Source of the DNA: Chloroflexota bacterium
GTDB taxonomy: Bacteria; Chloroflexota; Dehalococcoidia; Dehalococcoidales; JAUVZV01
Assembly: GCA_030602375.1 (NCBI GenBank)
Contig: JAUVZV010000002.1
Location: forward strand, 1 to 59,235
Direction: 5' to 3'
Length of the DNA: 59,235 nucleotides
Notes under the pieces: model-generated
Database searches by the model: none
What the model saw: only the letters and a program-made list of their open reading frames with translations
Told to the model about the DNA's origin: nothing
In this document: positions 1,347 to 44,312 of the stretch, piece after piece
Position numbering within the stretch: position 1 is the stretch's first letter
Layout: every line of letters starts with the position of its first letter
Made by a program: the position numbers and the translations under genes

Positions 1347-1382
1347 GAAATCTACCCCTCTTGCTAGTATATTTACTTTAAG

Positions 1383-2564: not shown

Positions 2565-2710
2565 TCTTAGCTCCTTTGCCTCTTATTGGTCATCTTAAAG
2601 CCTAGGTTACAGCTTCCTTTACTGCGTTTTCATCCTTTTCCTTGTTGCCGAAAACAAGCAATTATGTTTAGGATTATTTCCCCCAAGGCCTCTATAAGCT
2701 ATTACTGGGG

Positions 2711-4618: not shown

Positions 4619-4701
4619 GCTTATACTCCGTTGACTTAAACTTAATTATAAGTTAACGTTTTTAGGATACACGGTGGATATAAAGATTATTAGGGGCCAC
4701 A

Positions 4702-4729
4702 GCTATGCGGGCTAGCTAGCCCGCATAGC
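4702..4729. repeat. perfect 28-nt palindrome between the TRAP binding-protein and permease genes (intercistronic hairpin)
   Basis: gctatgcgggctag|ctagcccgcatagc is an exact reverse complement. No U-tract follows on the minus strand. Confidence 0.9.
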
Positions 4730-4754
4730 CATAATCCCTTTCACCAGTTTCTGC

Positions 4755-5966
4755 TTAGTCCCATCCCCCGGGTCGGCGAGGGCTACCATACCGGCCGGCA
4801 TAGCCAAACCAGTCCGGCTCTTCCATCGGGCTAGCTGTATAGCGATCTACGTGCGTACGGTACGCGGCAACCATTGCCTCAGCCTGTTCCCAAGCTAATC
4901 CGTTGTCCACAGCCTGTTGGTACCATATTTCATAATTTGGAATAGCCCCTTCGAGCCACCTTGCCTTCTCGTCTGGAGGCAGGGTGTAGAAGTCGTCACC
5001 CTTCTCCTTAAACCACGCCAGATCTACCTCTGAACCGTGGTCCAGGGTGGCACCGATAATTAACGAATAGGTGTGACCCGCAAAATTCTGGTTGATGACG
5101 TCCTGAATGTCTGCAGGCAAGCTCTCCCAGAACTCTTTGTTCATCGACGGGTTGCAAACTGAGAAATTCAGGTCGCAGATGGTATGGTGATGCAGGTACT
5201 CAGCAGTGCCAAATGACCTCAAAGGTGCCCAGGGCCAGATGCCGCCTTCAATGACACCCTTCTCCAGCGCCAGTACCGATTCTGCCATTTGGATGAGCAT
5301 CGGGGTAGCACCCCAGTTTTCCAGGCTGGTCAGGTGAATCAGGTTTTCGCCGGCGATAATCCTACCTTTCATTTCCTCCATTGTTTTGATAAGCACTGTC
5401 TGCATATGAAGGTTTTGCACGGCGCTTGAATGGGTGGTCAAGTGATGGACAGCTTCATATTCCTTCCGGATTGGCTCTCCCAGTGGGTCAGTAGTAATGA
5501 AATCGTAGGCAGCGAGGCCGTATATTGCTGCTGAGGCACCGGCAAGGAAGGGCAGCCAGAGCATTTCAGTAAAGGGAAAACGACCCGCCATCACGTGAGC
5601 CCAGACCTCCCCCTGCTGAGTCATCCCTGCCTGGATAGCATCGAAGGCTTCCCTATACTCAACCAGAGCCTGTCCATTGTAGAAGACATATTCTACCCTG
5701 CCATCGGTTAGCTCCGTAACCTTTTCACCCAGCACAGCCTTGCCATCATAGAAGGACGGATGCATCAGAGGATAGCAGGGGCCGTCTTTGATTTCGAAGA
5801 CTTTCTCTGGAGTCGGTGTTGGGGTCGGGGTTGGGGTTGGGGTTGGCGTTGGCGTTGGTGTTGGAGTTGGTGCCGGGGCAGCACAAGCGCTTATCAAGGG
5901 CAGAGAAGCCAAGACTATAGCTATCAGAATACCGCTACTAATTTTTAACAGCTTTCTGTGTCGCAC
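4755..5966 (-). CDS. TRAP-type solute-binding lipoprotein (DctP-like) with a (PT)n linker
   Basis: 403-aa ORF with a GTG start after AAGGAGGAG. The signal peptide plus lipobox is LPLISAC. A run APAPTPTPTPTPTPTPTPTPTPTPEK follows, then a ~350-aa globular domain. It sits immediately upstream of the TRAP permease. Confidence 0.65.
   Translation of the reverse strand: MRHRKLLKISSGILIAIVLASLPLISACAAPAPTPTPTPTPTPTPTPTPTPTPEKVFEIKDGPCYPLMHPSFYDGKAVLGEKVTELTDGRVEYVFYNGQALVEYREAFDAIQAGMTQQGEVWAHVMAGRFPFTEMLWLPFLAGASAAIYGLAAYDFITTDPLGEPIRKEYEAVHHLTTHSSAVQNLHMQTVLIKTMEEMKGRIIAGENLIHLTSLENWGATPMLIQMAESVLALEKGVIEGGIWPWAPLRSFGTAEYLHHHTICDLNFSVCNPSMNKEFWESLPADIQDVINQNFAGHTYSLIIGATLDHGSEVDLAWFKEKGDDFYTLPPDEKARWLEGAIPNYEIWYQQAVDNGLAWEQAEAMVAAYRTHVDRYTASPMEEPDWFGYAGRYGSPRRPGGWD
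5808..5870 (-). repeat. hexanucleotide tandem repeat encoding (Pro-Thr)x10-11
   Basis: The plus strand reads tggagtcggtgttggggtcggggttggggttggggttggcgttggcgttggtgttggagttggtgc. The minus-strand frame gives P33..P53 of the lipoprotein. Confidence 0.9.
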
Positions 5967-27248: not shown

Positions 27249-28496
27249 TTATTGGTACTGGCGGAAGATGAGCACCGAGTTATGCCCACCAAAGCCTAAT
27301 GAATTGGACATGGCAGTCTGTATCCTGACCTGGCGTGCCTGGTTCGGCACATAGTCTAAGTCACACTCAGGGTCAGGATGAGTGAGGTTTATCGTCGGTG
27401 GTAACACCCCGCGGTTCATTGCTAAGATAGTTATCACCGCCTCAATACCCCCCGCTGCCCCTAAAAGATGCCCGGTCATAGATTTACTGGCTGAGATAGG
27501 AATATACCTGGCCTTATCTTGGAACACACTCTTAATTACAACGGTTTCCGTCCGGTCGTTAAGTAGAGTAGCTGTGCCGTGGGCATTGATATAATCAATG
27601 TCGTTAGGGCTAAGGCCAGCCCTCTTTAAGGCAAGCCTTACCGCTCTAGCACCACCCTCACCATCAGGTGAGGGTTGGGTGAGGTGAAAAGCATCACTGG
27701 CGGCGCTATAGCCCACAATTTCAGCCAAGATAGGGGCTCCGCGCTCCAAGGCATGGGTGGCATCTTCGAGAACTATCATGGCAGCACCTTCACCTAAGAC
27801 GAACCCATCCCGCTCAGCGTCAAAAGGACGACACGCCGCCTGCGGATTATCATTTCTTGTTGACAAGGCTCGAATAGCACCAAAGGCAGCCACTACCAGA
27901 GGAATAATAGGTGCTTCGGTACCACCAGCCACCATGACCTTGGCATTACCCTGAAGAATTGCCTCATATGCCTGGCCAATGGCATCGCTACCGCTAGAGC
28001 AAGCCGATGAGGGGGCGTAATTTACTCCCTTGGCACCCAAGGTCAAAGAGACCTGAACTGAAGCGGCATCCCCAGTCATTGCTGGGGCCAGAGCCGGGCT
28101 TACCCTTCTGGGGCCCATCTCGCTCAGTACCTTAAACTGCTCACAAACCGAGAGCAACCCACAGACACTGTTACCAACAATAACCCCAATCTCTTCAGCA
28201 TTATCTCCGTTTATGGTTAATCCCGCCGCTTCCACCGCCTGAAGGCTAGCGGCGACAGCAAATTGAGTGAACCTATCCATGTGCCGAGCCTGCTTTCGGC
28301 CAACATACATACTGGCGTCAAAGCCTTTAACCTCAGCGGCAAACCTAGTCTCAAAAGGAGTAGGGTCAAAGCTGGAAATATAGTCAACCCCTGAGCATCC
28401 AGAGACAAGCGCCTGCCACATATCGGAGGCACTAAGACCAACGGGGCTTATTACCCCGAGGCCAGTAACCACCACCCGCCGCTGATTGTTAAACAC
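27249..28496 (-). CDS. fabF: beta-ketoacyl-ACP synthase II, copy 1
   Basis: Motifs are RRVVVTGLGVISP, active-site SSACSSGSDAIG, NAHGTAT, SKSMTGHLLGAAG and GFGGHNSVL. I prefer the GTG at 28496 after AGGAG; the track's TTG is at 28556. Confidence 0.85.
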   Translation of the reverse strand: MFNNQRRVVVTGLGVISPVGLSASDMWQALVSGCSGVDYISSFDPTPFETRFAAEVKGFDASMYVGRKQARHMDRFTQFAVAASLQAVEAAGLTINGDNAEEIGVIVGNSVCGLLSVCEQFKVLSEMGPRRVSPALAPAMTGDAASVQVSLTLGAKGVNYAPSSACSSGSDAIGQAYEAILQGNAKVMVAGGTEAPIIPLVVAAFGAIRALSTRNDNPQAACRPFDAERDGFVLGEGAAMIVLEDATHALERGAPILAEIVGYSAASDAFHLTQPSPDGEGGARAVRLALKRAGLSPNDIDYINAHGTATLLNDRTETVVIKSVFQDKARYIPISASKSMTGHLLGAAGGIEAVITILAMNRGVLPPTINLTHPDPECDLDYVPNQARQVRIQTAMSNSLGFGGHNSVLIFRQYQ

Positions 28497-28698
28497 GTCG
28501 CCATTCACTCCTATAATTTGTTTTTTTGATGCGGTTTGATTCAATAAAGAGGGCAAGATCTTGGGGAATAATACGGTAGCTTCGCCCTAAACGTATAGCG
28601 TCAAGCTTACCCCGTCGAATATAACTGTACACGGTTAGCACATGAACCTGAAGGATTCCGGCTACTTGTTCCGAGGTAAGTAAGTTGCTACTTTCCAT
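28489..28698 (-). CDS. small excisionase/MerR-type helix-turn-helix (HTH_17-like) DNA-binding protein
   Basis: MESSNLLTSEQVAGILQVHVLTVYSYIRRGKLDAIRLGRSYRI. I prefer ATG 28698, with an alternative ATG at 28773. The 3' end overlaps the fabF start by 8 nt. Confidence 0.6.
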   Translation of the reverse strand: MESSNLLTSEQVAGILQVHVLTVYSYIRRGKLDAIRLGRSYRIIPQDLALFIESNRIKKTNYRSEWRRV

Positions 28699-28804
28699 AC
28701 TTAATGCCTCACAGCCTGGCTTGGTTTCTCCATATTCTGGTTTATCTAAGTATAATTTGGTTAATTCCAGCATAGGTGATTAACTATATCTTGTGAAGTG
28801 ATAT

Positions 28805-28824
28805 TGTTCTAGAACACTGTTCTA
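28805..28824. promoter_or_regulatory. operator-like triple half-site TGTTCT-AGAACA-c-TGTTCT
   Basis: Two overlapping exact palindromes, tgttctagaaca and agaacactgttct, lie in the divergent intergenic region. The array overlaps the -35 position of a minus-strand TATAGT (28783-28788). It lies upstream of a plus-strand TGGTAAAAT (28861-28869). Confidence 0.4.
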
Positions 28825-28902
28825 CATCGCATCGCTGAGGATTCCGACACAAAATTGATGTGGTAAAATACCTTGACCTCGAAACTGAAAAGGAGGCTTT
28901 AA

Positions 28903-31236
28903 GTGAAGAAGAGCCTGCTTTTTGCTTTGATGCTCATGGGCTTTACCTCCGTGGTAGCCCAGGTACTATTAATCAGAGAGCTGCTGGTAACCTTCCATGG
29001 AAATGAGTTATCAATAGGGATTATTCTAGCCAATTGGCTTATTCTTGAGGCTATCGGCAGTGGCTTTCTGGGGAAGCTTTCGGAAAAGGTAAGCCGGGCT
29101 TGGCAAGCCTTTGCCGGGTTACAGCTTGCAATCTCTATATTAATACCTTTAGTTATCTATGGGACTCGGCTTGCCAAAAGCTTTATCGGCCTTACCTTTG
29201 GGCAGGCGGTAGATTTAGGACCCATATTTTATACCTCTTTTCTTCTGCTTGCCCCCTTAGCCCTTTTTGATGGTGCTCTATTTACCTTCGGCTGCAAAAT
29301 ATATAGTTCTGAAGTAGAGAAGGGGGCTCCAGCTGCGGGTAAGGTTTATGGCCTTGAAGCCATCGGTGCCGTGACCGGCGGGGTAATGGTCACCTTCCTT
29401 TTCATCCCTTATTTTAATTCCCTGCAGGTAGCTTTTATTCTGGCCGCCTTAAACCTTCTTTCAGCCTTTCTTCTTTTAATTCTCTTCGGTAGGATACCGG
29501 CGATATTGACCCGACTGAAGACAATACCCCCAAAAGATAAGAATTTTCTTAAAGGAAGTATTTGCTTTCTAGCCGTGGTGGTTATCCTCTTAACTTCAAG
29601 CCTTTATGTGCTTTTCACTCCGAGAGCAGATGAGTTAGAAGCCCATTCACTTAAGAGGCAATGGAGCGGCTACGAGCTTAGATTTTCCCAGAACTCAATT
29701 TATGGAAATGTCGCTGTCATCGAAAGGGAGAAGCAGTTTACCTTCTTCGCTGACGGAATCCCCATCATGACTACCCCGGTTCCCGATATAGCCTTCGTTG
29801 AAGAACTGGTACACCTGCCGATGCTTTTTCATCCATCGCCGCAAAAGATTCTTCTAATCAGTGGCGGTGCCGGGGGGGTACTAAACGAGATACTTAAGCA
29901 CCCCATTGAGAGGGTTGATTATGTCGAGCTTGACCCGTTGCTAATTGAGGCAGTGCAAAGATTTCCTACGCCGCTTACCGAATCAGAGCTTGGAAATCCG
30001 AAGGTGAGAATTGAATACATTGATGGGAGAAAGTATGTAAATACTTCCACCCAGAGATATGACGTAGTCATCGTTAACTTACCGCCACCCTCTACTCTTC
30101 AATTAAATAGGTTCTACACCAAAGATTTCTTTAGTCAGGCCTATAAGATCTTAAATGAGGATGGTATTTTAACTATTTGTTCTCCGGGCTCCTTGACCTA
30201 TCTCAGTGAGGAACTTATTAGTCTAAACGCCTGTATTCTTCAAACATTAAACGACACCTTCGCTTATGTTCGACCTATCCCGGGTGAGGTTAATCTTTTT
30301 CTGGCCTCTCCTTCAGCTCAAATCCTTGATATTGACCTCTCTACTCTTATTAAGCGATTCCATGAGCGTGAGCTTAAGACCAAACTTTTTACCGACTTTT
30401 ACCTTGAATACAAGTTACGCCAAGACCGATTCCATTGGTTTACGGAGTCAGTAACTAAAGTCCAAGATATAAGGCTAAATAGCGACCTTTCCCCCTCTGG
30501 ATTATTCTATGAACTTTCCCTCTTGAATGCTGAATTCTCCCCCAATCTCAAGGGGATCTTCAGCCTGATGGGGAAGGCAAACATACCAATCCTCCTAGTA
30601 CCAATTGGTATACTCGCTATAGGTTTTTGGTTAGTCAGAAAAAGAACGCCTAGGCTGAAAAAAGCTGCCATTCCGATTGCCATCATCACTACTGGATTTG
30701 CTGGGATGGCTTTTAATATGATACTTATCTTCGCCTTTCAATCCTTTTATGGATATGTTTATCACACCATCGGGCTACTGACCGCCGCCTTTATGGTAGG
30801 ACTAGCCCTAGGCAGCATCGGGATGAGTCATTTGATGAACAAAATTAAAAAAGACCTGTCCTCTCTGGTAAAACTGGAAGCACTGGTCCTTTCCTTCTCT
30901 CTCCTGGTTCCGGTAATACTGTTATTTTTGCACTCTTACCTAACCCAGCCGCTTGCATTTGCTCCGGTGCAAAGCGTAATTTATCTCTTGAGTTTTACTT
31001 CCGGGGTATTGGTTGGTCTTGAGTTCCCCCTAGCCAACAAGATTTACCTTAAAGGCAAAGAGCGAGTCGGTGAGGTAGCTGGAACGCTTTATGCCTCAGA
31101 CCTCTTTGGCTCTTGGGTTGGCGCGCTTGTAGTCAGCATTTTACTGGTTCCTGTATTAGGTATTGTTGAAACCTGCGTCCTTATTGCCTGTCTCAAGGTG
31201 GCAAGCCTAATCCTGGTGGTTACTTCAAAGTTGTAG
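28903..31236 (+). CDS. membrane-embedded spermidine-synthase-like (aminopropyl/methyltransferase fold) fusion protein
   Basis: 777 aa with a GTG start after AAGGAGG. It has ~7 N-terminal TM helices, then a central AdoMet-fold domain (LLISGGAGGVLNEILKH, VDYVELDP, YDVVIVNLPPP), then ~6 C-terminal TM helices. Confidence 0.7.
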   Translation: MKKSLLFALMLMGFTSVVAQVLLIRELLVTFHGNELSIGIILANWLILEAIGSGFLGKLSEKVSRAWQAFAGLQLAISILIPLVIYGTRLAKSFIGLTFGQAVDLGPIFYTSFLLLAPLALFDGALFTFGCKIYSSEVEKGAPAAGKVYGLEAIGAVTGGVMVTFLFIPYFNSLQVAFILAALNLLSAFLLLILFGRIPAILTRLKTIPPKDKNFLKGSICFLAVVVILLTSSLYVLFTPRADELEAHSLKRQWSGYELRFSQNSIYGNVAVIEREKQFTFFADGIPIMTTPVPDIAFVEELVHLPMLFHPSPQKILLISGGAGGVLNEILKHPIERVDYVELDPLLIEAVQRFPTPLTESELGNPKVRIEYIDGRKYVNTSTQRYDVVIVNLPPPSTLQLNRFYTKDFFSQAYKILNEDGILTICSPGSLTYLSEELISLNACILQTLNDTFAYVRPIPGEVNLFLASPSAQILDIDLSTLIKRFHERELKTKLFTDFYLEYKLRQDRFHWFTESVTKVQDIRLNSDLSPSGLFYELSLLNAEFSPNLKGIFSLMGKANIPILLVPIGILAIGFWLVRKRTPRLKKAAIPIAIITTGFAGMAFNMILIFAFQSFYGYVYHTIGLLTAAFMVGLALGSIGMSHLMNKIKKDLSSLVKLEALVLSFSLLVPVILLFLHSYLTQPLAFAPVQSVIYLLSFTSGVLVGLEFPLANKIYLKGKERVGEVAGTLYASDLFGSWVGALVVSILLVPVLGIVETCVLIACLKVASLILVVTSKL

Positions 31237-31255
31237 GCCTACTTGGGAAACGCTG

Positions 31256-32425
31256 TCATTTTTGATTCCAAATGCCGGGGATTTTAAGTCCGCAAAAGAT
31301 GCATTTCCCACCCTTGACATTATTTTCCGTAAGGGTAAGCCCGAGGCGCCCAATTAACTTCTCCCCACAGCCGGGGCAATAAGTATTATCTGCCTTATGC
31401 CCCGGAACGTTACCGATATAGACATATTTAAGCCCTACCCCGATTGCCGTCTCTCTTGCCTTCTCCAAGGTATCTATTGAGGTGGGAGGTAGTTTGGTTA
31501 GCTTATAGGCAGGGAAAAACCTAGTGAAATGCAGTGGCACATCCTCCCCCAGGTTTTCTTTAATCCATAGGCACATCTCTCTTATTTGGCTTATATCATC
31601 GTTTAAGGTAGGAATGATAAGGTTTACTATTTCTAGATGCTTCAACTCTTCTTTTACTATCATGGCTGACCGCAATACCGGCTCAAGCTCCCCCGAGCAA
31701 TTGGTGGCATAAAATTCTTCACTAAATCCTTTGATATCAATATTAACGGCATCAACATATTGAAGAAGCTCCCTTAAAGGCTTAGGATTGATAAAGCCAT
31801 TGGTATTAAGAAGCATCATAATTCCTCTCTCTTCGGCAAGCTTAGCAATATCGTACATATACTCGTAACCAACCGTGGGCTCGGTATAAGTAAATGAGAT
31901 AAGTTTCAAATCACTCCCTAAAGCAAGCCCCACCACTTGTTCAGGGGATAGGCTCTGGCTCTCCACCTCTTCTGGAGCCCTTTGTGAGAGGTACCAGTTT
32001 TGGCAATTTCGGCATTTGAGGTTACAGCTGGCAGTAGCCAAATTAAGACGCATGCCCCCGGGGCAGACATGAAATAGAGGTAACTTTTCAACAGGATCTA
32101 TGTTTAAGGCACACGGCCTAGCATAAACTAGCGAATATAGTTTGCCTTCGATATTCTTTCTGTTGCGGCAGGTACCCCTTTGCCCCTCTTCGATTACACA
32201 TTTCCTAGGGCAAATTTGGCATTGCACTGTTTCGTCATCCAGCTTAAGGTAATGCCTGGCCTCAGTAAGTGCTTCTTTGTCAGGGAAGGGCTCAGCCGGG
32301 GAGGCTGGGGTGGCATAATTTAAGATTAATAGTGATGTGATCATAACAAAAGCTATAAGTGCCAGTATTTCAATAGTTCTTCGTACCATCAAACTCTTGT
32401 TTGCTGCCAAAAAGAATAACCTCAT
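31256..32425 (-). CDS. radical SAM enzyme, PflA-like / AmmeMemoRadiSam (AmrS)-type, with N-terminal membrane anchor (paralogue A)
   Basis: Motifs are CNLKCRNCQNW, N-terminal CQICPRKC..GTCRNR and C-terminal CPGCGEK..CIFCG. The N-terminus is MVRRTIEILALIAFVMITSLLIL followed by a Pro-rich linker. Confidence 0.8.
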   Translation of the reverse strand: MRLFFLAANKSLMVRRTIEILALIAFVMITSLLILNYATPASPAEPFPDKEALTEARHYLKLDDETVQCQICPRKCVIEEGQRGTCRNRKNIEGKLYSLVYARPCALNIDPVEKLPLFHVCPGGMRLNLATASCNLKCRNCQNWYLSQRAPEEVESQSLSPEQVVGLALGSDLKLISFTYTEPTVGYEYMYDIAKLAEERGIMMLLNTNGFINPKPLRELLQYVDAVNIDIKGFSEEFYATNCSGELEPVLRSAMIVKEELKHLEIVNLIIPTLNDDISQIREMCLWIKENLGEDVPLHFTRFFPAYKLTKLPPTSIDTLEKARETAIGVGLKYVYIGNVPGHKADNTYCPGCGEKLIGRLGLTLTENNVKGGKCIFCGLKIPGIWNQK

Positions 32426-32455
32426 GTCAGCGACATGCTCTTTTGGCCAACAAAT

Positions 32456-32848
32456 CTAGCGTTTCAGGAATCGCTCAATAAGTTTTATCCTCCCGTCCCC
32501 ACCACATTTAGGACAGATTTCATAGCCTTTGCCTAAGCAGATATCACAAGGTGTGGTAGTCAAGGTGTTATAACGGCCGATGCTACCGCAGACAGGGCAA
32601 TCAGGGCTTTCGCCTCTACAGGCACATTCAACAGAAAATGGAATCGCTATCGCCCCAATGCCCTTACAGACCGGGCATTCAATCTTGCCGTCGCCATCAC
32701 AGTGTTGGCATTCGGTTTCAATCGTTACACCTGCTCCCAACGCCCCAACAATCACTATTCCCACAATAAGGATAATAATAAGACGGCGAGTTAGTATTCT
32801 AGGTTCATTAGTCCCAGATTCCGGGGATTGGGTAGCCACAATAGGCAC
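32456..32848 (-). CDS. membrane-anchored DnaJ-type zinc-finger (CxxCxGxG repeat) protein
   Basis: 130 aa reading TRRLIIILIVGIVIVGALGAGV. This is followed by CQHCDGDG, CPVCKGIG, CAC, CPVCGSIG, CDICLGKG and CPKCGGDG. The start is GTG 32848 or GTG 32839. It overlaps rSAM paralogue B by ~32-41 nt. Confidence 0.6.
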   Translation of the reverse strand: MPIVATQSPESGTNEPRILTRRLIIILIVGIVIVGALGAGVTIETECQHCDGDGKIECPVCKGIGAIAIPFSVECACRGESPDCPVCGSIGRYNTLTTTPCDICLGKGYEICPKCGGDGRIKLIERFLKR

Positions 32849-33956
32849 ATCTCCCTTCTTTTAGAAGATACTGCTGTACGATAAAGCCGACACGCTTGAT
32901 AATAAGCTCCCCGCATTGTGGGCAGAAGGTGCTGTTGGCGATATGTCCCGGAGCATTGCCGATATAAACATACTTCAGTCCCACTTCTTGAGCAATCTCT
33001 CTTGCTTTGTCCAAGGTCTCAAGTGGCGTTGGCGGCAGCTTCAGAAGCTTGTAAGCCGGGAAAAATCGGGAGAAGTGAAGCGGAGTGTCTTCACCGAGAT
33101 TATCCCTAATCCAAATACACATTTCTCTTAGCTTGTCCATATCATCATTCAAGGTGGGGATAAGTAAGTTCACCACCTCAAGCCATACCCCTTCTTCCTT
33201 TATTATTTTCAAAGTGCGTAGCACCGGCTCCAGTTCCGAGGAAGAAACATTTAGGTAAAACTCTTCAGTAAAGGCTTTTAAGTCAATGCAAGCAGCATCC
33301 ATATAGGGAAGAAGAGCCCGCAGTGGCTCTGGGTTAATGGTTCCATTGGAATGGAAATATGTTACCAGTCCCATCTCCTTTGCCAGCTTGGCTATATCAT
33401 ACATATATTCATAAAAAACTGTCGGCTCATTATAGGTAAAGGAAATAGAATTGCAACCTACCTCACCAGCCATCGTTACTGCTTCCTCAGGGGATAGAGC
33501 GATGTTATCTGTCTCCTCCACGGTTCTTTGCGACATGTGCCAGTTATGGCAGAAAAGACACTTCTGGTTACAACTTGCGGTACCAAAGCAAAGCGTTGTA
33601 TCCCCAGGCAAAAGGTGGAAAAGCGGTTCCTTTTCTACCGGGTCAATTTGTATAGCACAGGGATTGGCATAGACTAGACTATAGAGGGTGCCACCTATAT
33701 TTATCCTATTCTCACAGACGCCCCTAGCACCTTCCTGAATGGTACACTTTCTGAAGCAAAGCTGACATTGCACCATGCCATCACCAAGTTTCTGGTAATA
33801 TCTGGCTTCAGTAAGCTTCTCCTTAGGAGGTACCCCTTGGGGTGGGGAAGGAGCAGTAGTTTGCAAAATGATTGTCACCCCAATCACCACAAATAAACTT
33901 ATGGCAACTATCTCAATAACCCTTCGTGTTCTAGATTTCCAATTGTCAGTCACCAT
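32808..33956 (-). CDS. radical SAM enzyme, PflA-like / AmrS-type, with N-terminal membrane anchor (paralogue B)
   Basis: Motifs are CNQKCLFCHNW, CQLCFRKC..GVCENR and CPQCGEL..CAYCG. The N-terminus is KSRTRRVIEIVAISLFVVIGVTIIL. It shares blocks EYMYDIAKLA, LKYVYIGN and RFFPAYKL with paralogue A. Confidence 0.8.
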   Translation of the reverse strand: MVTDNWKSRTRRVIEIVAISLFVVIGVTIILQTTAPSPPQGVPPKEKLTEARYYQKLGDGMVQCQLCFRKCTIQEGARGVCENRINIGGTLYSLVYANPCAIQIDPVEKEPLFHLLPGDTTLCFGTASCNQKCLFCHNWHMSQRTVEETDNIALSPEEAVTMAGEVGCNSISFTYNEPTVFYEYMYDIAKLAKEMGLVTYFHSNGTINPEPLRALLPYMDAACIDLKAFTEEFYLNVSSSELEPVLRTLKIIKEEGVWLEVVNLLIPTLNDDMDKLREMCIWIRDNLGEDTPLHFSRFFPAYKLLKLPPTPLETLDKAREIAQEVGLKYVYIGNAPGHIANSTFCPQCGELIIKRVGFIVQQYLLKEGRCAYCGYPIPGIWD

Positions 33957-34722
33957 AAGTTCTCTCTTGCTTTCCCAGCCGGCTCTTCAAATCAATGGCT
34001 TTCCCCTGGCATCTAGTATAACACTGTAGGCACCTATTGCAATCTAAAGAATCCCAAACCTCGTGCCCACCCCTTGGGTTTAAGCCTGCCGGGCAGTACT
34101 TAAGGCAGTCCCGACAGTCAAGACACTTTTGAGGGTCACGCTTTATCTTAAGCAAACTATTTCGGTTAAATACCGAGAGCCAGGCACCAAACGGACATAG
34201 ATAATTGCACCAAGCTCGCGATAAAAAGAGGGCGAGCAAAAGGAAAACTATAGCCACCGTTAAACGCACCAGGCGCATCCCTTCAGTATGCCCAACCATA
34301 AAAGACCACAGCCCCTCGCCACCCCAGAGGCCCAAGGCTTCTATCAATAAAGCGATAAGCAGAATAGCAATAGCGAACTTCAAATACCTCAGTGATTTAT
34401 TCACAGTTGGTTTTATGGGAATCTTCTTCAACGGGATTTTAAAAAGCAAATCTTGAGCCACACCGAAGGGGCAAAATAGTCCGCAGAAAGTTCGCCCGGC
34501 AAGAAGACTAGTCCCCAGTATCCCGTAAAATAGCCAGAGACGAATCTGACCAAAATTACAGAACACGGGGCAGGCATGGCACATGATGAAGGGTAAAGGA
34601 TAAGGGCAGCCCAAAAATCCCCCGCTTACCCCGGAGCCAAACCACCAGCCAAAGATTGCTATCGGGCCGAGGATTGTCAAAAAGATTATTTGAAAGAGGA
34701 CCCGCAGCTTTTCAAGTCTCAT
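33946..34722 (-). CDS. NapH/NosR/RdhC-like integral-membrane polyferredoxin
   Basis: 258 aa with several TM helices. CX3CP motifs are FCGLFCPFG and WCNYLCPFG. C-terminal cluster motifs are CLDCRDCLKYCP and CNRCLQCYTRC. Confidence 0.7.
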   Translation of the reverse strand: MRLEKLRVLFQIIFLTILGPIAIFGWWFGSGVSGGFLGCPYPLPFIMCHACPVFCNFGQIRLWLFYGILGTSLLAGRTFCGLFCPFGVAQDLLFKIPLKKIPIKPTVNKSLRYLKFAIAILLIALLIEALGLWGGEGLWSFMVGHTEGMRLVRLTVAIVFLLLALFLSRAWCNYLCPFGAWLSVFNRNSLLKIKRDPQKCLDCRDCLKYCPAGLNPRGGHEVWDSLDCNRCLQCYTRCQGKAIDLKSRLGKQERTYGD

Positions 34723-34769
34723 CTAAACCCCTAAAAGCAGAGGCTATGCCTTAAATAATTTAGTGATAA

Positions 34770-35432
34770 CTATAAACCAACTAACACAGAAATTAGTAAC
34801 CGGGCACCCAGAAGAAGCAACAGGAAGCCACAAGCTCGCCTAAAGATGTCTAAAGTTCTAGGAGTCTTAAATAGTGCCTTAGGAATCACGCCGGCAACGA
34901 TCCCCAAGATTATTATCGGCGTGATAATTGCTGGACCGAGCCCAAAGCAAAAGGCATAAAATGCCCCGACTAGAGCACTTTTAGCAGTAGTCGCAATGTA
35001 TGAGAGTACGGCAAGGAGAGGAGCACAAGGGCTAATACCAATTATTAAGCCAAGCAGAGCCATGCTTTTAATGCTATCATTAACCGTGTGCCTAGTTAAG
35101 ACCTGACAGAAGTGAAAGCGAGGCTCTTTCCCCCAGATAATTATTATCCCCACTAGCGAGATGAATGCCCCTGCTGCAACCCAAAGATAAAGAGCCAAAT
35201 TGTGATGCTTAAGAGTACTAACGATTAAATCACCGAAGAGGCCGGCCAGCAGCCCTAATAAAACATAAGCAAAAAGGCGCGATAGCGAGAATATTAGCGT
35301 GGCTCTTAGGCTGTCTCTCCAACCCTCCCTCGTGCCAGCAACATAAAGCCCCAACATTGGGGCGCAAGAAATCACACATTGGCTTGCTCCCAAGGCTATG
35401 CCCATTACAAACAATTCTAAAGGTATGTTCAT
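34770..35432 (-). CDS. CcdA/DsbD-superfamily (DsbD_2-like) thiol:disulfide membrane protein
   Basis: 220 aa with ~6 TM helices. The membrane-embedded Cys motifs are ASQCVISCAPM and GISPCAPLL. Confidence 0.5.
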   Translation of the reverse strand: MNIPLELFVMGIALGASQCVISCAPMLGLYVAGTREGWRDSLRATLIFSLSRLFAYVLLGLLAGLFGDLIVSTLKHHNLALYLWVAAGAFISLVGIIIIWGKEPRFHFCQVLTRHTVNDSIKSMALLGLIIGISPCAPLLAVLSYIATTAKSALVGAFYAFCFGLGPAIITPIIILGIVAGVIPKALFKTPRTLDIFRRACGFLLLLLGARLLISVLVGL

Positions 35433-35536
35433 TTAAGGATAGCCCTACCCGCAAAGAGGAAGCGGGTGCTGGAGAAGGTTCAAAGAAGGCTTCTAGGCTT
35501 GGTTTTACCAAAGTCCTGTTTGGTGCACCAGTAGCT

Positions 35537-37039
35537 TCAGCTACCCCCAACAGCATTGATAATATCCCTGTCCAACCCCTTAAACCGGGAAAGCCACTCC
35601 AGCCTCTCCTGTTTCAAATCGCCTGATATCTCCTCAATCTGTTCCGGAGGGTAGTAAGTGCTAAGGTCAAAGCGGCGCAGGTCAACCCCAGGGATTTCAA
35701 CCGGCACCTCATAGCCCCAGAACTCGTCTTTTGCCCAAGAAATCTTATCGCGGGCTATCATTTCCAGAATCTTCACCGAGTCCACCACGGTTATCTTCTG
35801 CCCTCTCTCCCTGCCGCCGACCATCCCGGTGTTCAAAAGAAAACACTGGATATCAGGATTTTTCTGCAAAATATCAAGGAAGCTGTTACCCTCGTCCTCT
35901 TCCGAACCAATAATAAAAGGATTGGTACCAACCACCCGACGCGGTTTACCCACCTCAGTTGGGTCACCAGCCGAGGTTTCCACCGACTCACCCAACATAA
36001 AGGCAGCCGCTGCCCACTGCCGGTTAAGACACACCACCGGCGGCAAAATGTCATAGCGGCGGGTAATAAACATGATGCAGTTAACCTTTCCCAGGTCAAT
36101 CTCGTCATCAGTAAAAGCAATGTCCCGTCTTTTTACCATGGCCCGACCGTTGGAAGTAAGCGTGGTATTAAAGAAATCAACCTTACCCGTTTCTGGCTCC
36201 ACCCAGACGTTTTCCAGTATTGTCCGAGGACTTATCGCCGCCGCATACAGTAGTGGCTGCATGCCTGGTTCCAGCCCCTCTGTCTTCATATAGAAAGACT
36301 CCTCAGTACCTACAGCACTACCATCGGACTTCAGTATTACCACATCATCCTGGCGAATCACCGCCCTTTCCGGGGGACGCAGCCAATGGGAATGGCAGGA
36401 AAGTGAGGTCTTACCGGTGCCACTAAGACCAAAGAGTAAAAAGCCTATATCCTTAAGCTCGCCATCTCGGAACACCCGCAAGATTTTGCTGGCGGCGTGA
36501 AGCCCAAGATTGCCTTCTCGTTTTGCCCAATACATCACCTGACGAAGCATTGCCTTTTTGTTCTCGCCTTTATAGTCACTGCCTAAAATCAGCGTTAGCC
36601 CATGCTCAGCAAAGACCAAGACCCTCTTTTCTGGCCACTCGGGGACAGTAATAACGGTGAAGTCAGGCTCACCCCCCTCAGACGGGAACATGGTATTACC
36701 CCACATCAGGGGCAGTCGTGAATACTCTGAAGTAACGTAAAGGCGGCAATTTCTCTTAAATCCGGGGGTGTGACACATCACCCTGTCCAGCTTTATCATC
36801 TCTTTACCCTGCAAATACTGCAAAACCTTACCCACCAGCTCGATATTTTCCTGGTCAAGCCCACCCGTCACCACCTCAGTAAACTTGGCAATCCGGTTGC
36901 GTACTATGGTCGTCACCGAAAGATTGCCGAATTCCGTTATCACCCCCCCCTGCTCCAGCGACCACTCCCTGAGTTTTTCCTCGGAGGGGTTATTAATTAT
37001 TCTTTTCGGCTTAAATCCTTGGGCAAAAATATCCAGCAT
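35537..37039 (-). CDS. pckA: phosphoenolpyruvate carboxykinase (ATP)-like, divergent
   Basis: 500 aa with the ATG after GGAGGTGAGG. It has the kinase-1a motif FGLSGTGKTSLS and a downstream LENVWVEPETGKVDF..TSNGRAM block alignable to ATP-PEPCK. Confidence 0.65.
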   Translation of the reverse strand: MLDIFAQGFKPKRIINNPSEEKLREWSLEQGGVITEFGNLSVTTIVRNRIAKFTEVVTGGLDQENIELVGKVLQYLQGKEMIKLDRVMCHTPGFKRNCRLYVTSEYSRLPLMWGNTMFPSEGGEPDFTVITVPEWPEKRVLVFAEHGLTLILGSDYKGENKKAMLRQVMYWAKREGNLGLHAASKILRVFRDGELKDIGFLLFGLSGTGKTSLSCHSHWLRPPERAVIRQDDVVILKSDGSAVGTEESFYMKTEGLEPGMQPLLYAAAISPRTILENVWVEPETGKVDFFNTTLTSNGRAMVKRRDIAFTDDEIDLGKVNCIMFITRRYDILPPVVCLNRQWAAAAFMLGESVETSAGDPTEVGKPRRVVGTNPFIIGSEEDEGNSFLDILQKNPDIQCFLLNTGMVGGRERGQKITVVDSVKILEMIARDKISWAKDEFWGYEVPVEIPGVDLRRFDLSTYYPPEQIEEISGDLKQERLEWLSRFKGLDRDIINAVGGS

Positions 37040-37134: not shown

Positions 37135-37620
37135 ATGATTTACGAGCTTAGTCCAGAGGATATTGACCGGGTTTACTTTATCATCAATGAGGCAGCCAAA
37201 GCCTACCAAGGCTTTATACCCACTGACTGCTACCATGAGCCCTATATGTCCATAGATGAGCTAAAACGAGAAATGAAACGCATCACCTTCTTCGGCTGGG
37301 AAGTAGAGGGTGAGATTTTAGGCGTCATGGGGTTTGAACGGGTTGGAGATGTTACCCTTATCCGTCATGCCTATGTACTGCCCCAGTACCAGAGACAGGG
37401 AATTAGCAGCAAGCTCTTAACTAATTTAAAGGGTATGGTTATCACCCCCCGCCTTCTGGTAGGTACCTGGGCTGATGCCAGGTGGGCAGTTCGTTTCTAT
37501 GAGAAACACGGCTTTAAGCTCCTGCCCAATAAGGATGAGCTACTTAAGACCTACTGGGATATCCCCCAGCGGCAGATTGAGACCTCAGTGGTTCTGGGGA
37601 TAAATATTTTAAAAAATTAA
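37135..37620 (+). CDS. GNAT-family N-acetyltransferase
   Basis: 161 aa with the acetyl-CoA motif region VLPQYQRQGISSKLLTN and YEKHGFK. Confidence 0.75.
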   Translation: MIYELSPEDIDRVYFIINEAAKAYQGFIPTDCYHEPYMSIDELKREMKRITFFGWEVEGEILGVMGFERVGDVTLIRHAYVLPQYQRQGISSKLLTNLKGMVITPRLLVGTWADARWAVRFYEKHGFKLLPNKDELLKTYWDIPQRQIETSVVLGINILKN

Positions 37621-37629
37621 GGAGAGCAA

Positions 37630-38532
37630 ATGATCTTCTCACCGAAGGCTAGGGAGCGATTCCAAAAAAAACCGGCACAGGCAATTGAGGAGGAAATCAA
37701 GGCATTTACCCGAACCAGCCCCCTTAACCGTATGCCTGGTATGGAAAACCAGGTTATCTTTGATAAACCACTGGTGCAGTTTGCCGATGTTGATGACCCC
37801 ATCTTTACCGAGTACAAGACCATCATTGCCCCCAGCCACCTCACCCCTCGTGAGGCGCTGGCTAAAGCCTCAGGCAAAAGCGCCGAAGGCTTACCGGCAC
37901 GCCTCTCCATAATCAGCTGGATTCTGCCCATTACCGAAAAGACCCGCCTCTCCAACCGGCGGCAAACAAAATCCCCGTCCCGCCTCTGGTCATACACCCG
38001 CTGGTACGGGGAGAAGTTTAATGAAGCCTTGCGGCAACATATGGTTCAAGTCCTTACTCAATTGGGTTATCTGGCAGTAGCACCAATGATGCAGCCCTAC
38101 TTCAAGGAGTTTACCAATGAGAAAGGAAAATACTCAAACTGGTCGGAGCGGCACATCGCCTACGCTGCCGGACTGGGCACCTTCTCGCTTTCTGATGGTT
38201 TTATCACCGAGCGCGGCATCGCCCACCGCTGCGGCAGCGTGGTCACCGACCTTATATTGCCAGTAAGCCCAAGAGTAGCCAAAGACCCGTATTCAAACTG
38301 CCCTTTCTATGTAGACGGTAGCTGTAAAGCCTGCATCACCCGCTGCCCCGCCGGGGCTATTAGTGAAAGTGGCCACGACAAGATAAAATGCTTTGAACAT
38401 ATGCAAGAACCCGAGCTACTGAAAGAGTATCAGGTTGGGAAATTAGGCTGCGGGCTCTGCCAGACTAAGGTCCCGTGTGAATACAGAAACCCGACGAGGA
38501 AGGTATCTCCCCCCACACCCCATCATCTCTAA
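37630..38532 (+). CDS. QueG/RdhA-superfamily Fe-S protein (epoxyqueuosine-reductase-like)
   Basis: 300 aa with the ATG 6 nt after AAGGAG. C-terminal Cys motifs are CPFYVDGSCKACITRCP and CGLCQTKVPC. There is no Tat signal and no anchor gene. Confidence 0.4.
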   Translation: MIFSPKARERFQKKPAQAIEEEIKAFTRTSPLNRMPGMENQVIFDKPLVQFADVDDPIFTEYKTIIAPSHLTPREALAKASGKSAEGLPARLSIISWILPITEKTRLSNRRQTKSPSRLWSYTRWYGEKFNEALRQHMVQVLTQLGYLAVAPMMQPYFKEFTNEKGKYSNWSERHIAYAAGLGTFSLSDGFITERGIAHRCGSVVTDLILPVSPRVAKDPYSNCPFYVDGSCKACITRCPAGAISESGHDKIKCFEHMQEPELLKEYQVGKLGCGLCQTKVPCEYRNPTRKVSPPTPHHL

Positions 38533-39763
38533 TCTCCACCAGCTTCAGCGGCAGCAGCTTATTGGTTAAATCTTTATTACTTTCAGTATAGACCTTGATG
38601 TAGTTGGGGGTGAGTCCGGACCAGACGCCAGAAGGTGAGCGCTTCTCCCAAAGTACTGGCATTATCTTACCCGAGAATTTCTGATTAAAGTTTCGGGTGC
38701 TTTGGCAGGCTAGAGAAAGCATTCGCTTGGTTCGCTCTCTTTTTATTTGAGGTGATAGCGTATCGGGGAACTGAGCAGCCTCAGTACCATCACGGGGGGA
38801 ATAGGGGAAAACATGGATTCGGGCAAAGCCCATCTGCTGAGAAAGCTCATAGCTTTCCAAAAACTCAGCCTCACTCTCACCGGGGAAGCCGACGATAATA
38901 TCAGTGGTGATGGCAACATCAGGCACCATATTACGGATTAAGGCTACCACCTGCTGGTACTCACCAGCCCTATAACGCCGATTCATTAGCTTTAGCACCC
39001 TGTCACTGCCACTCTGCAGCGAGAGGTGAAAATGCGGGCATAAGCGGCTATCCCGCCACAGCTTTAGCAGCCCCGGATGGATTTCTTGAGGTTGCAGAGA
39101 AGACAGTCTTAATCTTTTAATATCAGTTTCAGCCAGGATGCGCTCAAGTAGCCCCTTCAAGTCTATGCCATCATGCTTATAGGAGCCAACTTTGACCCCA
39201 GTTATTACCACCTCTTTATAGCCCGCTTCAATCTTCGTCCTGATGTGAGCGATAATCTCATCAGCAGGCAGGCTTTTTTCTCTTCCCCGCACCAGAGGCA
39301 CAATGCAGTAGGAGCAAAAGTTGCTGCAACCATCCTGAACCTTAATTAAAGCACGGGTCTTGAAGCCATTCCGGGCAAATAAACGCTGTCTAGTGGCGGG
39401 CATCCGGTGCAAGTGACCCTTCTCTTCCAGCACCTGAGGCAGTCGGGGCTTTTCATCACCACCAATAACCAGACTAACCCCATCAATATGAGCCAGCTCC
39501 TTTGGGGCACGCTGAGCATAGCATCCTGTAGCCACCACCAGTGCCTCAGGGTTCAGGCGATGAGCCAGCCTCAGCAGGTGCCGAGATTTACGGTCGGCGA
39601 TATGGGTTACGCTGCAGGTATTCAGTATGTAGATATCAGCGGCACTATCCGGGGATACCAGCCTCAAGCCTGCCCGAGTAAATTGGCCTGCCAGAAGCTC
39701 CGTCTCTGCCTGATTTAGCTTACAACCTAAAGTAGCCAGGGCAACCCTTATCTCATTAGGCAT
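38465..39763 (-). CDS. mtaB: tRNA methylthiotransferase MtaB (MiaB-like radical SAM)
   Basis: I prefer ATG 39763 (MPNEIRVALATLGCKLNQAE). The radical SAM motif is GCSNFCSYC, with a C-terminal TRAM-like tail. Confidence 0.8.
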   Translation of the reverse strand: MPNEIRVALATLGCKLNQAETELLAGQFTRAGLRLVSPDSAADIYILNTCSVTHIADRKSRHLLRLAHRLNPEALVVATGCYAQRAPKELAHIDGVSLVIGGDEKPRLPQVLEEKGHLHRMPATRQRLFARNGFKTRALIKVQDGCSNFCSYCIVPLVRGREKSLPADEIIAHIRTKIEAGYKEVVITGVKVGSYKHDGIDLKGLLERILAETDIKRLRLSSLQPQEIHPGLLKLWRDSRLCPHFHLSLQSGSDRVLKLMNRRYRAGEYQQVVALIRNMVPDVAITTDIIVGFPGESEAEFLESYELSQQMGFARIHVFPYSPRDGTEAAQFPDTLSPQIKRERTKRMLSLACQSTRNFNQKFSGKIMPVLWEKRSPSGVWSGLTPNYIKVYTESNKDLTNKLLPLKLVEIRDDGVWGEIPSSSGFCIHTGP

Positions 39764-39885
39764 CCTATCCACCAAAGTCTCCACGTCTACCTTGACAACC
39801 AAATACAGGTGCAGTATATTATTGATACCCTCATCAGTCAAATCACACCGCTTCAGAATCCAAGAGGTCTCACCACGAAAAGTAA

Positions 39886-43484: not shown

Positions 43485-44312
43485 CTACGCCTCCCCTGTC
43501 TCCTCTGCCTTGTCTTCCGCCTCTGTCTCCGGTTCTACCTCTGCTCTTACCTCCTTAACCCACCGCGTCTTATAAGCCATTAAGGGAACAACCACAGCCA
43601 AGGTAAGTAGAGCGATAATCTGAGCCTGATGTAAACCAACGAAAAACGGTGTTCCCTCTCTCAGGAAATCAATGCCAACCCGCCACAGGGAATATATCCC
43701 GAGGTAGCCTAAAAATAGGGAGCCGTCAGGTTCAAAGCGTCCCCTTAGTTTAAGTAAGGCGACAAAAACTATAAGTAAGAATATAATCTCATAAACTGTC
43801 GTGGGATGGCGAACCCCCAAAGCGGCAAAGCTCTCCGGGTGGGTATAGACAATCCCCCAGGGTAAGGAGGTTTCTACGCCATAGCAGCAACCATTAATGG
43901 TGCAGCCAATCCTGCCGACTACCTGAGCCAAGACAAGACCTGGTACCACTGCATCGGCGAAGTAGCCAAACTCAAACTTGCCCACCTTGCTGTAAACCCA
44001 GACACCCAGAGCCGCACCTAAGATGGCACCGTAGATAGTTAGACCTTCAGTGGTAAACATCTGCTCCGGGTGATAGCGGTAATAATCCATTCTATCCCAA
44101 AGATGAAGCAGCTTTGATATTATTATCCCCGACGGGATCCCCACCAGTGCTGCGGTTAAGACATTGTCATAGGAAACCTTGAGGCCCTTTTTAACCTGCC
44201 ATACCACCCACAGTATTAGCACCCCAATGGCAAGGGCAACTAGAATGCCATACCATCTGATAGCCAGTGAGCCGATGGCAATGGCTACAGGATTTACGCC
44301 GATATTAATCAT
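43485..44312 (-). CDS. lgt: prolipoprotein diacylglyceryl transferase
   Basis: The ATG follows AGGAGGAG. The motif is GRIGCTINGCCYG in a polytopic protein. An acidic C-terminal tail EVEPETEAEDKAEETGEA is present. Confidence 0.85.
   Translation of the reverse strand: MINIGVNPVAIAIGSLAIRWYGILVALAIGVLILWVVWQVKKGLKVSYDNVLTAALVGIPSGIIISKLLHLWDRMDYYRYHPEQMFTTEGLTIYGAILGAALGVWVYSKVGKFEFGYFADAVVPGLVLAQVVGRIGCTINGCCYGVETSLPWGIVYTHPESFAALGVRHPTTVYEIIFLLIVFVALLKLRGRFEPDGSLFLGYLGIYSLWRVGIDFLREGTPFFVGLHQAQIIALLTLAVVVPLMAYKTRWVKEVRAEVEPETEAEDKAEETGEA

Follow-up and report, generated by a model that had tools for sequence, protein, structure and literature searches.

A candidate extracytoplasmic radical-SAM module in Chloroflexota pairs AmrS-like enzymes with a fused MFS/spermidine-synthase-like membrane protein

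Contig JAUVZV010000002.1 of a Chloroflexota bacterium (assembly GCA_030602375.1) was analysed over 59,235 nucleotides, hereafter the window. It contains five minus-strand genes, G1 to G5, two of which (G3 and G5) encode radical S-adenosylmethionine (SAM) enzymes of the AmrS type. Convergent with G5, its 3′ end only 19 nt away, lies a gene for a polytopic membrane protein of 777 amino acids (aa), which we call the partner. Because they depend on SAM, a strong reductant and Fe-S clusters kept free of oxygen, radical-SAM enzymes are taken to be cytoplasmic. The locus probably exemplifies a widespread and so far undescribed radical-SAM module that lies outside the cytoplasm. The conserved unit consists of one to three N-terminally extended AmrS-like radical-SAM genes and the gene of the 777-aa partner (Table 1).

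Radical-SAM enzymes and their conserved neighbour

A preliminary description of this DNA had reported five tightly packed genes on one strand, and the open reading frames (ORFs) stand where it placed them, running from 35432 to 31256 with junctions of +47, -11, -41 and +30 nt. Its assignment of both radical-SAM proteins to the AmrS family holds as well. G3 and G5 are 59% identical and match the full-length hidden Markov model TIGR04337 (AmmeMemoRadiSam radical-SAM enzyme) above its cutoff of 220 bits. With AmrS (COG1180, PflA-like) they share the core residues and three cysteine motif sets: an N-terminal C-x2-C-x3-C...C, the CX3CX2C cluster motif (CNQKCLFC, residues 129-136 of G3; CNLKCRNC, residues 134-141 of G5) and a C-terminal CxxC...CxxC. 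All eleven cysteines (C64/67/71/81, C129/133/136 and C345/348/370/373) are conserved across 82 relatives. The AmrS parent family is without established function (PMC2034487).

The sole solved structure matched by sequence is that of the pyruvate formate-lyase activating enzyme (E 3e-6), whose radical-SAM core, like that of other glycyl-radical-enzyme activases, is related to that of G3 and G5. The window enzymes differ from these activases in their extra N- and C-terminal cysteine domains, in their predicted export and in scoring far below the models TIGR02493 and TIGR02494 (52 and 33 bits against cutoffs of 232 and 174). No glycyl-radical enzyme was found in the window or in the loci examined. 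Pfam and NCBIfam gave no SPASM, twitch or RRE (RiPP recognition element) match for either protein.

Relatives of G3 number 7030 at E<=1e-20. In a neighbour-joining tree of 82 radical-SAM ORFs from 72 genome loci (numbered with the prefix L), the enzymes bearing a signal or anchor form one clade nested within signal-less AmrS. The cysteine ligands and core motifs are kept in both groups alike, and the exported-looking clade therefore appears catalytically intact.

Neighbourhoods were compared by tblastn of the window proteins against the 72 loci. Of 31 loci that have an enzyme with a signal or anchor and a long enough contig, about 29 encode a 750-790-aa Spermine_synth membrane protein 0-8 kb away; of 35 loci with a signal-less enzyme, about 1 does (Fisher p ~5e-15, uncorrected for phylogeny). 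The reverse look-up, from five partner homologues (35-52% identical), gave a similar picture: four of the five, down to 35% identity, adjoin a gene for a radical-SAM enzyme of 382-414 aa, and all four enzymes bear canonical twin-arginine translocation (Tat) signals. This most conserved neighbour, on the opposite strand, was missing from the gene list of the preliminary description. The idea that the five genes themselves form a conserved set did not survive the comparison: among 32 loci, DsbD_2 genes (G1) occur in 13, NapH-like genes (G2) in 7-9 and zinc-finger genes (G4) in three, and the full window synteny was seen only in L001, where a G5 orthologue was also found. Clustering of ORFs of at least 70 aa around these loci returned radical-SAM, partner, DsbD_2, NapH-like, zinc-finger and antisense shadow ORFs only; no further conserved neighbour or precursor-peptide ORF of that size appeared.

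Hosts that carry the partner include members of Chloroflexota, Bathyarchaeia, Dictyoglomota, Planctomycetales, Clostridia, Halobacteroidaceae, Spirochaetaceae, Bacteroidales, Ignavibacteria and Competibacteraceae. The pairing was seen independently in a Proteobacteria metagenome-assembled genome (MAG) and in Poribacteria, and the module is also spread over KSB1, Latescibacterota, Cloacimonadota, Anaerolineae, Dehalococcoidia and other sediment and digester lineages. All partner-containing loci come from MAGs or metagenomes; among them we identified no cultured host. In one Chloroflexi MAG (L012:3046-10322) a partner gene is accompanied by three radical-SAM paralogues, all with Tat-type signals and two also with a lipobox cysteine.

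It is very improbable that the locus is an ordinary AmmeMemoRadiSam system whose AMMECR1 and Memo genes lie elsewhere in the genome and whose membrane neighbours are unrelated. Both enzymes do exceed the TIGR04337 cutoff, and a Pseudomonadota MAG (L036:10112-16508) has a Memo-AMMECR1 fusion between an AmrS gene and a homologue of the partner. Yet the signal-bearing enzymes form a distinct clade with an invariant neighbour of its own: compared with AmrS at large, the clade has an export signal or anchor and a linker, has lost the AMMECR1/Memo neighbourhood and has gained the MFS/spermidine-synthase-like neighbour (MFS, major facilitator superfamily). The classical arrangement, as in Desulfosporosinus (L056), is a LigB/Memo-like-AMMECR1 fusion overlapping a signal-less radical-SAM gene, without the membrane partner. 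AMMECR1 and Memo are not among the recurrent neighbours in the 32 loci, and neither was found in about 30 partner-containing loci. In the 59-kb window none of AMMECR1, Memo or a glycyl-radical enzyme was found among ORFs of at least 120 aa, which agrees with the preliminary description. The AMMECR1/Memo arrangement was met only beside signal-less relatives (L056, L036).

The L036 locus deserves a closer description. Its signal-less AmrS gene is followed by the Memo+AMMECR1 fusion, which appears to carry a Sec-type signal peptide (MHIKLAATLFLVSCLGLTLPVSLANA), and then by an overlapping gene for a 1189-aa protein in which a partner-like MFS/Spermine_synth part is fused to FMN_bind and NosR-like CX3CP domains. 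The locus ties the classical three-gene system to the membrane partner.

In openly licensed papers and bioRxiv, with most subscription journals outside the search, we found no description of an exported, periplasmic or Tat-dependent radical-SAM enzyme or of its pairing with a membrane or MFS spermidine synthase. The preliminary description had not recognised the gene combination as a described system either, and in our view the module fits no kind of system described so far.

N-terminal signals and sidedness of the enzymes

The Arg-rich stretch, helix and Pro-rich linker noted in the preliminary description are present in G3, G4 and G5. In all three an RR-containing basic segment precedes a strongly hydrophobic helix, which is followed by the linker. 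We classified the N-termini of the 120 closest G3 relatives (56-99% identical), nearly all of which have an N-terminal extension. The window type, a K/R-rich segment and a strongly hydrophobic helix, occurs in 74. A canonical twin-arginine signal (SRRDFLK, TRREFLQKG) with a moderate h-region is present in 35, and 24 of those also have a lipobox cysteine; MSLSRRDFLKRG... and LTRREFLQKG...LASC are examples. Nine have another signal-like N-terminus, and two lack a hydrophobic N-terminus and are probably truncated. The mean net charge in 114 relatives is +3.0 for the N-flank of the helix and -0.3 for its C-flank, and the linker contains 16% Pro and 13% Thr.

Bacterial Rieske proteins and reductive dehalogenases are Fe-S proteins that depend on Tat and stay attached to the membrane through an uncleaved signal-anchor or a lipid anchor. 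The window enzymes resemble them in placing an RR N-terminus and a hydrophobic helix on a cofactor-loaded redox protein, and differ in that we found no radical-SAM enzyme reported among Tat substrates. The predicted export route is clearly Tat for members with a canonical signal and is presumed to be Tat for the RR-anchor type. In one locus, tatA and tatC lie 1.6 kb downstream of a pair formed by the partner and a Tat-type radical-SAM enzyme (L085:8925-9821), which could be chance. The window itself has a gene for prolipoprotein diacylglyceryl transferase (Lgt) at 43485-44312 (-); its host therefore makes lipoproteins, a point relevant to the lipobox-bearing relatives.

The orientation of these domains is the central question. 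All soluble domains might be cytoplasmic, the helices tethering them to the inner face as viperin is tethered at the endoplasmic reticulum, the Tat motifs being vestigial as in NarG. The difficulty of SAM supply would then disappear; many anchor-type relatives lack a strict RR, and in L036 a signal-less enzyme adjoins the partner homologue. We regard this arrangement as quite unlikely. The strongly basic N-flank joined to a neutral or acidic C-flank in 96 of the 114 relatives, the Pro- and Thr-rich linkers, and the full Tat consensus with a moderate h-region, often with a lipobox and in other relatives with an AxA cleavage site, all speak against an inner-face tether. The preliminary description had suggested that the anchored domains face outward while leaving the topology undecided. 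The canonical Tat and lipoprotein signals on orthologues support the suggestion, and the evidence favours, but does not prove, an extracytoplasmic location of the radical-SAM domains.

The partner protein and its adenosyl-binding domain

The partner scores 96.9 bits with PF01564 (Spermine_synth; cutoff 22.9) and 51.9 bits with NF037959 ('fused MFS/spermidine synthase'; cutoff 40). Six MFS-like transmembrane (TM) helices are followed by TM7, a domain of spermidine-synthase fold, TM8 and six more MFS-like helices. The AlphaFold2 model, built with 76 homologues, has a mean local confidence (pLDDT) of 90 and a predicted TM-score (pTM) of 0.88. The family counts 3357 clusters at 50% identity (E<=1e-30); nearly all of the best 150 clusters share the full-length architecture, the exceptions being a few apparent fragments.

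A Foldseek search with the model of all 777 aa recovered SpeE structures only, on which residues 239-559 superpose with a TM-score of ~0.75. The SpeE fold is complete in this domain, N-terminal β domain included. The N-terminal TM half was therefore modelled separately. Its neighbours in the PDB are nearly all MFS transporters, with weak E-values (0.06-0.5); the TM-score to FLVCR2 is 0.56-0.59, at 3.3-3.8 Å over ~190 columns. The Pfam MFS_1 score of the partner is 19.4 against a cutoff of 33.4. Homology between residues 1-196 and 586-777 (hhalign 97%, E 6e-11) shows the membrane part to be a 6+6 repeat in which TM7 and TM8 are extra and flank the soluble domain. The partner resembles 14-TM MFS transporters of the DHA2 type in its 6+6 repeat, its two extra central helices and the MFS neighbours of its N-terminal half. 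It differs from them in the 320-residue enzyme-fold domain between the extra helices, and in falling below the Pfam cutoff.

Two features agree on the side to which the domain is predicted to turn. In the partner and in the average of 119 homologues, short K/R-rich loops alternate with K/R-poor ones, and the domain lies on the K/R-poor side. The six-helix repeats are parallel and joined by a helix-domain-helix insertion, which places the domain opposite the termini. By the positive-inside rule and the internal repeat, then, the spermidine-synthase-like domain is predicted to face outside. A cytoplasmic tethering of the module would turn it inward, contrary to both features.

The residues that bind ribose and adenine in Thermotoga maritima SpeE are kept: E342 and D374-G375 correspond to E121 and N152-G153. 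In contrast, aminopropyltransferase residues are replaced (Y76 by F298, D101 by G324, D170 by N392 and D173 by P395), so that GGGDG reads GGAGG and DSTDP reads NLPPP. G324 is invariant in the 76 homologues, and the partner does not reach the NCBIfam equivalog cutoffs for spermidine synthase. In a plant spermidine synthase, mutation of the residue equivalent to D101 abolished aminopropyl transfer and allowed methyl transfer from SAM (PMC3725402). Like putrescine N-methyltransferase (PMT), the domain lacks the Asp that selects decarboxylated SAM. With SpeE and PMT it shares the complete fold and the ribose/adenine-binding residues; unlike either, it also lacks the amine-binding Asp residues and sits within an outer loop of a protein with 14 TM helices. 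With binding residues kept and catalytic ones lost, the domain is best read as an adenosyl-ligand binder, not a canonical spermidine synthase. The partner bears directly on the SAM-supply problem that the preliminary description had raised.

Conserved acidic residues, E26, E35, E49, E152 and D733, are found in or beside the TM helices. Equivalent helices of the repeat carry paired conserved acidic and aromatic residues, Y149/E152 and Y730/D733; this pairing suggests a cation-binding site in the membrane domain.

These features could also fit enzymes that leave the cytoplasm through Tat with SAM already bound, using it once or catalytically with regeneration, as aminomutases do. The partner would then not handle the cofactor but would convert or transport the substrate or product; this could be an amine that undergoes methylation or some other modification outside before it crosses the membrane. 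Tat does export folded, cofactor-loaded proteins; the TM acids listed above would suit a cation, for instance an amine, as substrate, the domain is similar to a SAM-using derivative of spermidine synthase, and the best structural neighbours of the partner include amine and choline transporters. We judge this alternative unlikely: PflA-type enzymes consume SAM stoichiometrically, and the domain of the partner would still require an adenosyl donor on the outer side. Co-occurrence fits this alternative and a model in which the partner supplies SAM equally well.

Accessory genes, proposed mechanism and genomic context

G1 exceeds the cutoffs of PF13386 (76 against 24.9 bits) and PF02683 (DsbD_TM; 49 against 27.1). 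It shares with CcdA and DsbD six TM helices and cysteines in TM1 and TM4, at residues 19/23 and 136; the TM1 cysteines and that of the TM4 PCAP motif are conserved in 13 homologues. It differs from CcdA and DsbD in having no thioredoxin-like or cytochrome c maturation partner; instead, the DsbD_2 gene overlaps the start of the polyferredoxin gene in both further loci examined, which have the order DsbD_2-G2-radical SAM-partner (L083, L084).

The best named match of G2 is NapH/MauN (TIGR02163, NF007013), at 78 bits against cutoffs of 213 and 234. The preliminary description of a NapH-like polyferredoxin was right in architecture; the protein stays below the model cutoffs. G2 has four TM helices, two CX3CP motifs (Fer4_5) and a C-terminal 2x[4Fe-4S] domain, with cysteines at 80/84, 172/176, 200-210 and 228-238. 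Its N-terminus is predicted to be inside, as are the CX3CP motifs and the ferredoxin domain; the TM1-TM2 loop is K/R-poor and the next loop K/R-rich. The close family is tiny, with ~16 homologues in 5.8 billion proteins. The C-x8-C-x2-C-x3-C motif of the TM1-TM2 loop is kept in 15 of the 16, the sixteenth being a 204-aa fragment that lacks the region, and generic polyferredoxins do not have it. G2 resembles NapGH, NosR and RdhC modules in its four TM helices, two CX3CP motifs and cytoplasmic 2x[4Fe-4S] domain, and related loci fill its role with NapH-NapG-like and FMN_bind-NosR-like fusions. Its sub-cutoff scores, its own outer-loop four-cysteine motif, its constant pairing with DsbD_2 and its restriction to radical-SAM loci set it apart, and no nap, nos or rdh genes accompany it. 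A role as a generic redox module for other exported enzymes was considered and rejected, given the tiny family and the exclusive radical-SAM context with DsbD_2. The earlier suggestion that the DsbD/CcdA-like and polyferredoxin genes belong with the radical-SAM genes is upheld: the DsbD_2 and NapH-like pair is a dedicated accessory. The cytoplasmic location of the ferredoxin domain and CX3CP motifs in NapH-like proteins speaks for an inner-face tether of the enzymes.

G4 has the layout given in the preliminary description, with a different motif count: its 12 cysteines form four strict CxxCxGxG motifs, not five, one CxxCGxxG and one CxC. It lacks a J domain, scores 22.3 bits with PF00684 (DnaJ central zinc finger; gathering cutoff 32.7) and has a weak BSD2_CRD match. 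Homologues were found only in L001, L006 and L010, all Dehalococcoidia.

With a 12-cysteine product encoded between both radical-SAM genes, one may think of maturation resembling that of ribosomally synthesized and post-translationally modified peptides (RiPPs), in which the zinc-finger protein would be cross-linked by the two enzymes and exported. We hold this to be extremely improbable. The zinc-finger gene is present in three of 32 loci and the radical-SAM-partner pair occurs widely without it, a point that is largely observed; the protein has a membrane anchor, not a leader peptide, the enzymes have no SPASM or RRE match, and no small ORF (at least 70 aa surveyed) is conserved. As a core component of the module, too, the zinc-finger protein was rejected on its frequency.

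Other lineages have other redox genes. Nitroreductase-family genes adjoin Tat-type radical-SAM genes in L076 and L082, and also in L077 and L078. One product has a lipoprotein signal (LLYTSGC; L076:9143-9838) and another a Tat signal (LSRRGFFRIAAQ; L082:4015-4803); such exported nitroreductases may serve outside the membrane as a different source of electrons. L012 encodes a 448-aa fusion of NapH-like and NapG-like polyferredoxins with an internal RRRFLASLGVG segment. The FMN_bind domain of the L036 fusion is of a type that forms extracytoplasmic flavinylated modules. That the adjoining nitroreductases and this domain are themselves of exported types speaks against cytoplasmic enzymes. The accessory genes appear to be outward-directed redox parts: lineages differ in the parts, and all point outward.

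We propose the following mechanism. Members of one AmrS clade would fold and acquire their Fe-S clusters in the cytoplasm; after export they would stay attached to the membrane's outer face. The holdfast here and in most close relatives would be an uncleaved RR-containing signal-anchor, and elsewhere a canonical Tat signal, in many cases together with a lipobox. On the outer side, the enzymes would work with the 14-helix MFS-like partner and its outward-facing SpeE-fold domain. The partner may handle the adenosyl cofactor, either exporting and presenting SAM or capturing and re-importing 5′-deoxyadenosine or methionine. G2, and likewise its analogues, would pass low-potential electrons from the cytoplasmic ferredoxin domain through the outer-face cysteine site to the radical-SAM clusters. 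DsbD_2, with the zinc-finger protein in Dehalococcoidia, may keep the exported cysteines reduced. The substrate may be part of the envelope or a compound outside the cell; the range of hosts, which takes in monoderms, diderms and archaea, speaks for a target of a general kind in one of these two places. That radical-SAM catalysis truly takes place outside the membrane, with SAM exported and presented by the partner and low-potential electrons delivered by NapH/NosR-like or exported flavoprotein modules, so that anaerobes could perform radical chemistry on envelope components or on extracellular, non-importable substrates, we advance tentatively, as a possibility that falls short of probable.

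Several points weigh against an extracytoplasmic module. Its support is computational throughout, the sidedness of the partner is read from sequence rules and its assignment to MFS is soft. SAM is, to our knowledge, not found outside the cytoplasmic membrane, and the loss of methionine and 5′-deoxyadenosine at each turnover would be costly there. The anchor sub-type, window copies included, is not clearly targeted to Tat: RR stands beside the helix in 25 of the 74 anchor-type relatives, RxR in 13 and neither in 21, and the RRVIEI and RRTIEI of the window deviate from the Tat consensus (off-consensus Glu, very hydrophobic helix). An enzyme already folded with its three clusters could not be brought outside by insertion of the Sec type. 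G2 is polytopic, and its four outer-loop cysteines may be a dithiol relay with DsbD_2 instead of an Fe-S site; we know of no route for building an Fe-S cluster on such a loop. The pairing has exceptions: L036 combines a distant partner homologue with a signal-less enzyme, L015 and L042 have an anchored enzyme with no partner within 7-10 kb, and L080 has the partner without a radical-SAM gene.

Table 1 Features of the locus (positions in the window).
Feature	Position	Strand	Remarks
G1, DsbD_2/CcdA-like 6-TM thiol-disulfide transporter	34770-35432	-	220 aa; PF13386 E 5e-21
G2, NapH-like 4-TM polyferredoxin	33946-34722	-	258 aa; Fer4_5 x2 + Fer4
G2 TM1-TM2 loop, CPYPLPFIMCHACPVFC, C-x8-C-x2-C-x3-C, predicted outer face	34558-34608	-	K/R-poor loop
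G3, AmrS-like radical-SAM enzyme, paralogue 1	32808-33956	-	382 aa; TIGR04337 365.8 bits
G3 N-terminal signal-anchor, predicted, RTRRVIEIVAISLFVVIGVTIIL	33864-33932	-	relatives: canonical Tat/lipobox signals at same position
G4, membrane-anchored DnaJ-type zinc-finger-repeat protein, 12 Cys	32456-32848	-	130 aa, GTG start
G4 signal-anchor, predicted, LTRRLIIILIVGIVIVGALGAGV	32726-32794	-	
G5, AmrS-like radical-SAM enzyme, paralogue 2	31256-32425	-	389 aa; TIGR04337 335.9 bits
G5 N-terminal signal-anchor, predicted, VRRTIEILALIAFVMITSLLIL	32321-32386	-	
Core partner, 777-aa polytopic membrane protein	28903-31236	+	PF01564 + NF037959 matches
Partner's spermidine-synthase-fold domain (residues 239-559), predicted extracytoplasmic	29617-30579	+	Foldseek TM-score ~0.75 to SpeE

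Divergent from the partner gene, 130 nt apart, is a 94-aa HTH_17 gene (excisionase/MerR-type DNA-binding; 28489-28773, -), which may encode a local regulator. In L073 an HTH gene unrelated to it sits between the radical-SAM and partner genes. An Rfam scan of the whole window gave no match, and therefore no SAM riboswitch; promoter and terminator scans of 28400-35700 gave counts at chance level and are uninformative.

The remainder of the window resembles an ordinary Dehalococcoidia-type chromosome, and the closest genome locus is that of the Dehalococcoides sp. JdFR-54 MAG. At 37135-38532 (+), a GNAT acetyltransferase gene is followed by one for a 300-aa Fe-S protein with weak QueG (E 6e-5) and reductive-dehalogenase-like (E 3e-4) matches; the 3′ end of the latter gene overlaps a convergent MiaB/MtaB-like radical-SAM gene at 38465-39841. 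Two tandem arylsulfotransferase (ASST)-like genes lie beside a TRAP transporter (fused DctQM gene and DctP) at 288-5966 (-). The window also has several enolase-superfamily and dehydratase genes and two URO-D-like genes.

If the proposed reading is true, the assumption that radical-SAM enzymes are cytoplasmic only would be overturned, and SAM or a derivative of it would be present outside the membrane. The exported enzymes would define a new class of Tat substrates, and the large orphan family of 'fused MFS/spermidine synthase' proteins would gain a function. The spread of the module over sediment and digester lineages points to some general process in the envelope or outside the cell in anoxic habitats. 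Should the domains turn out to be cytoplasmic, the strict pairing of the radical-SAM enzyme with its partner would still offer a new clue to the chemistry of the AmrS family.

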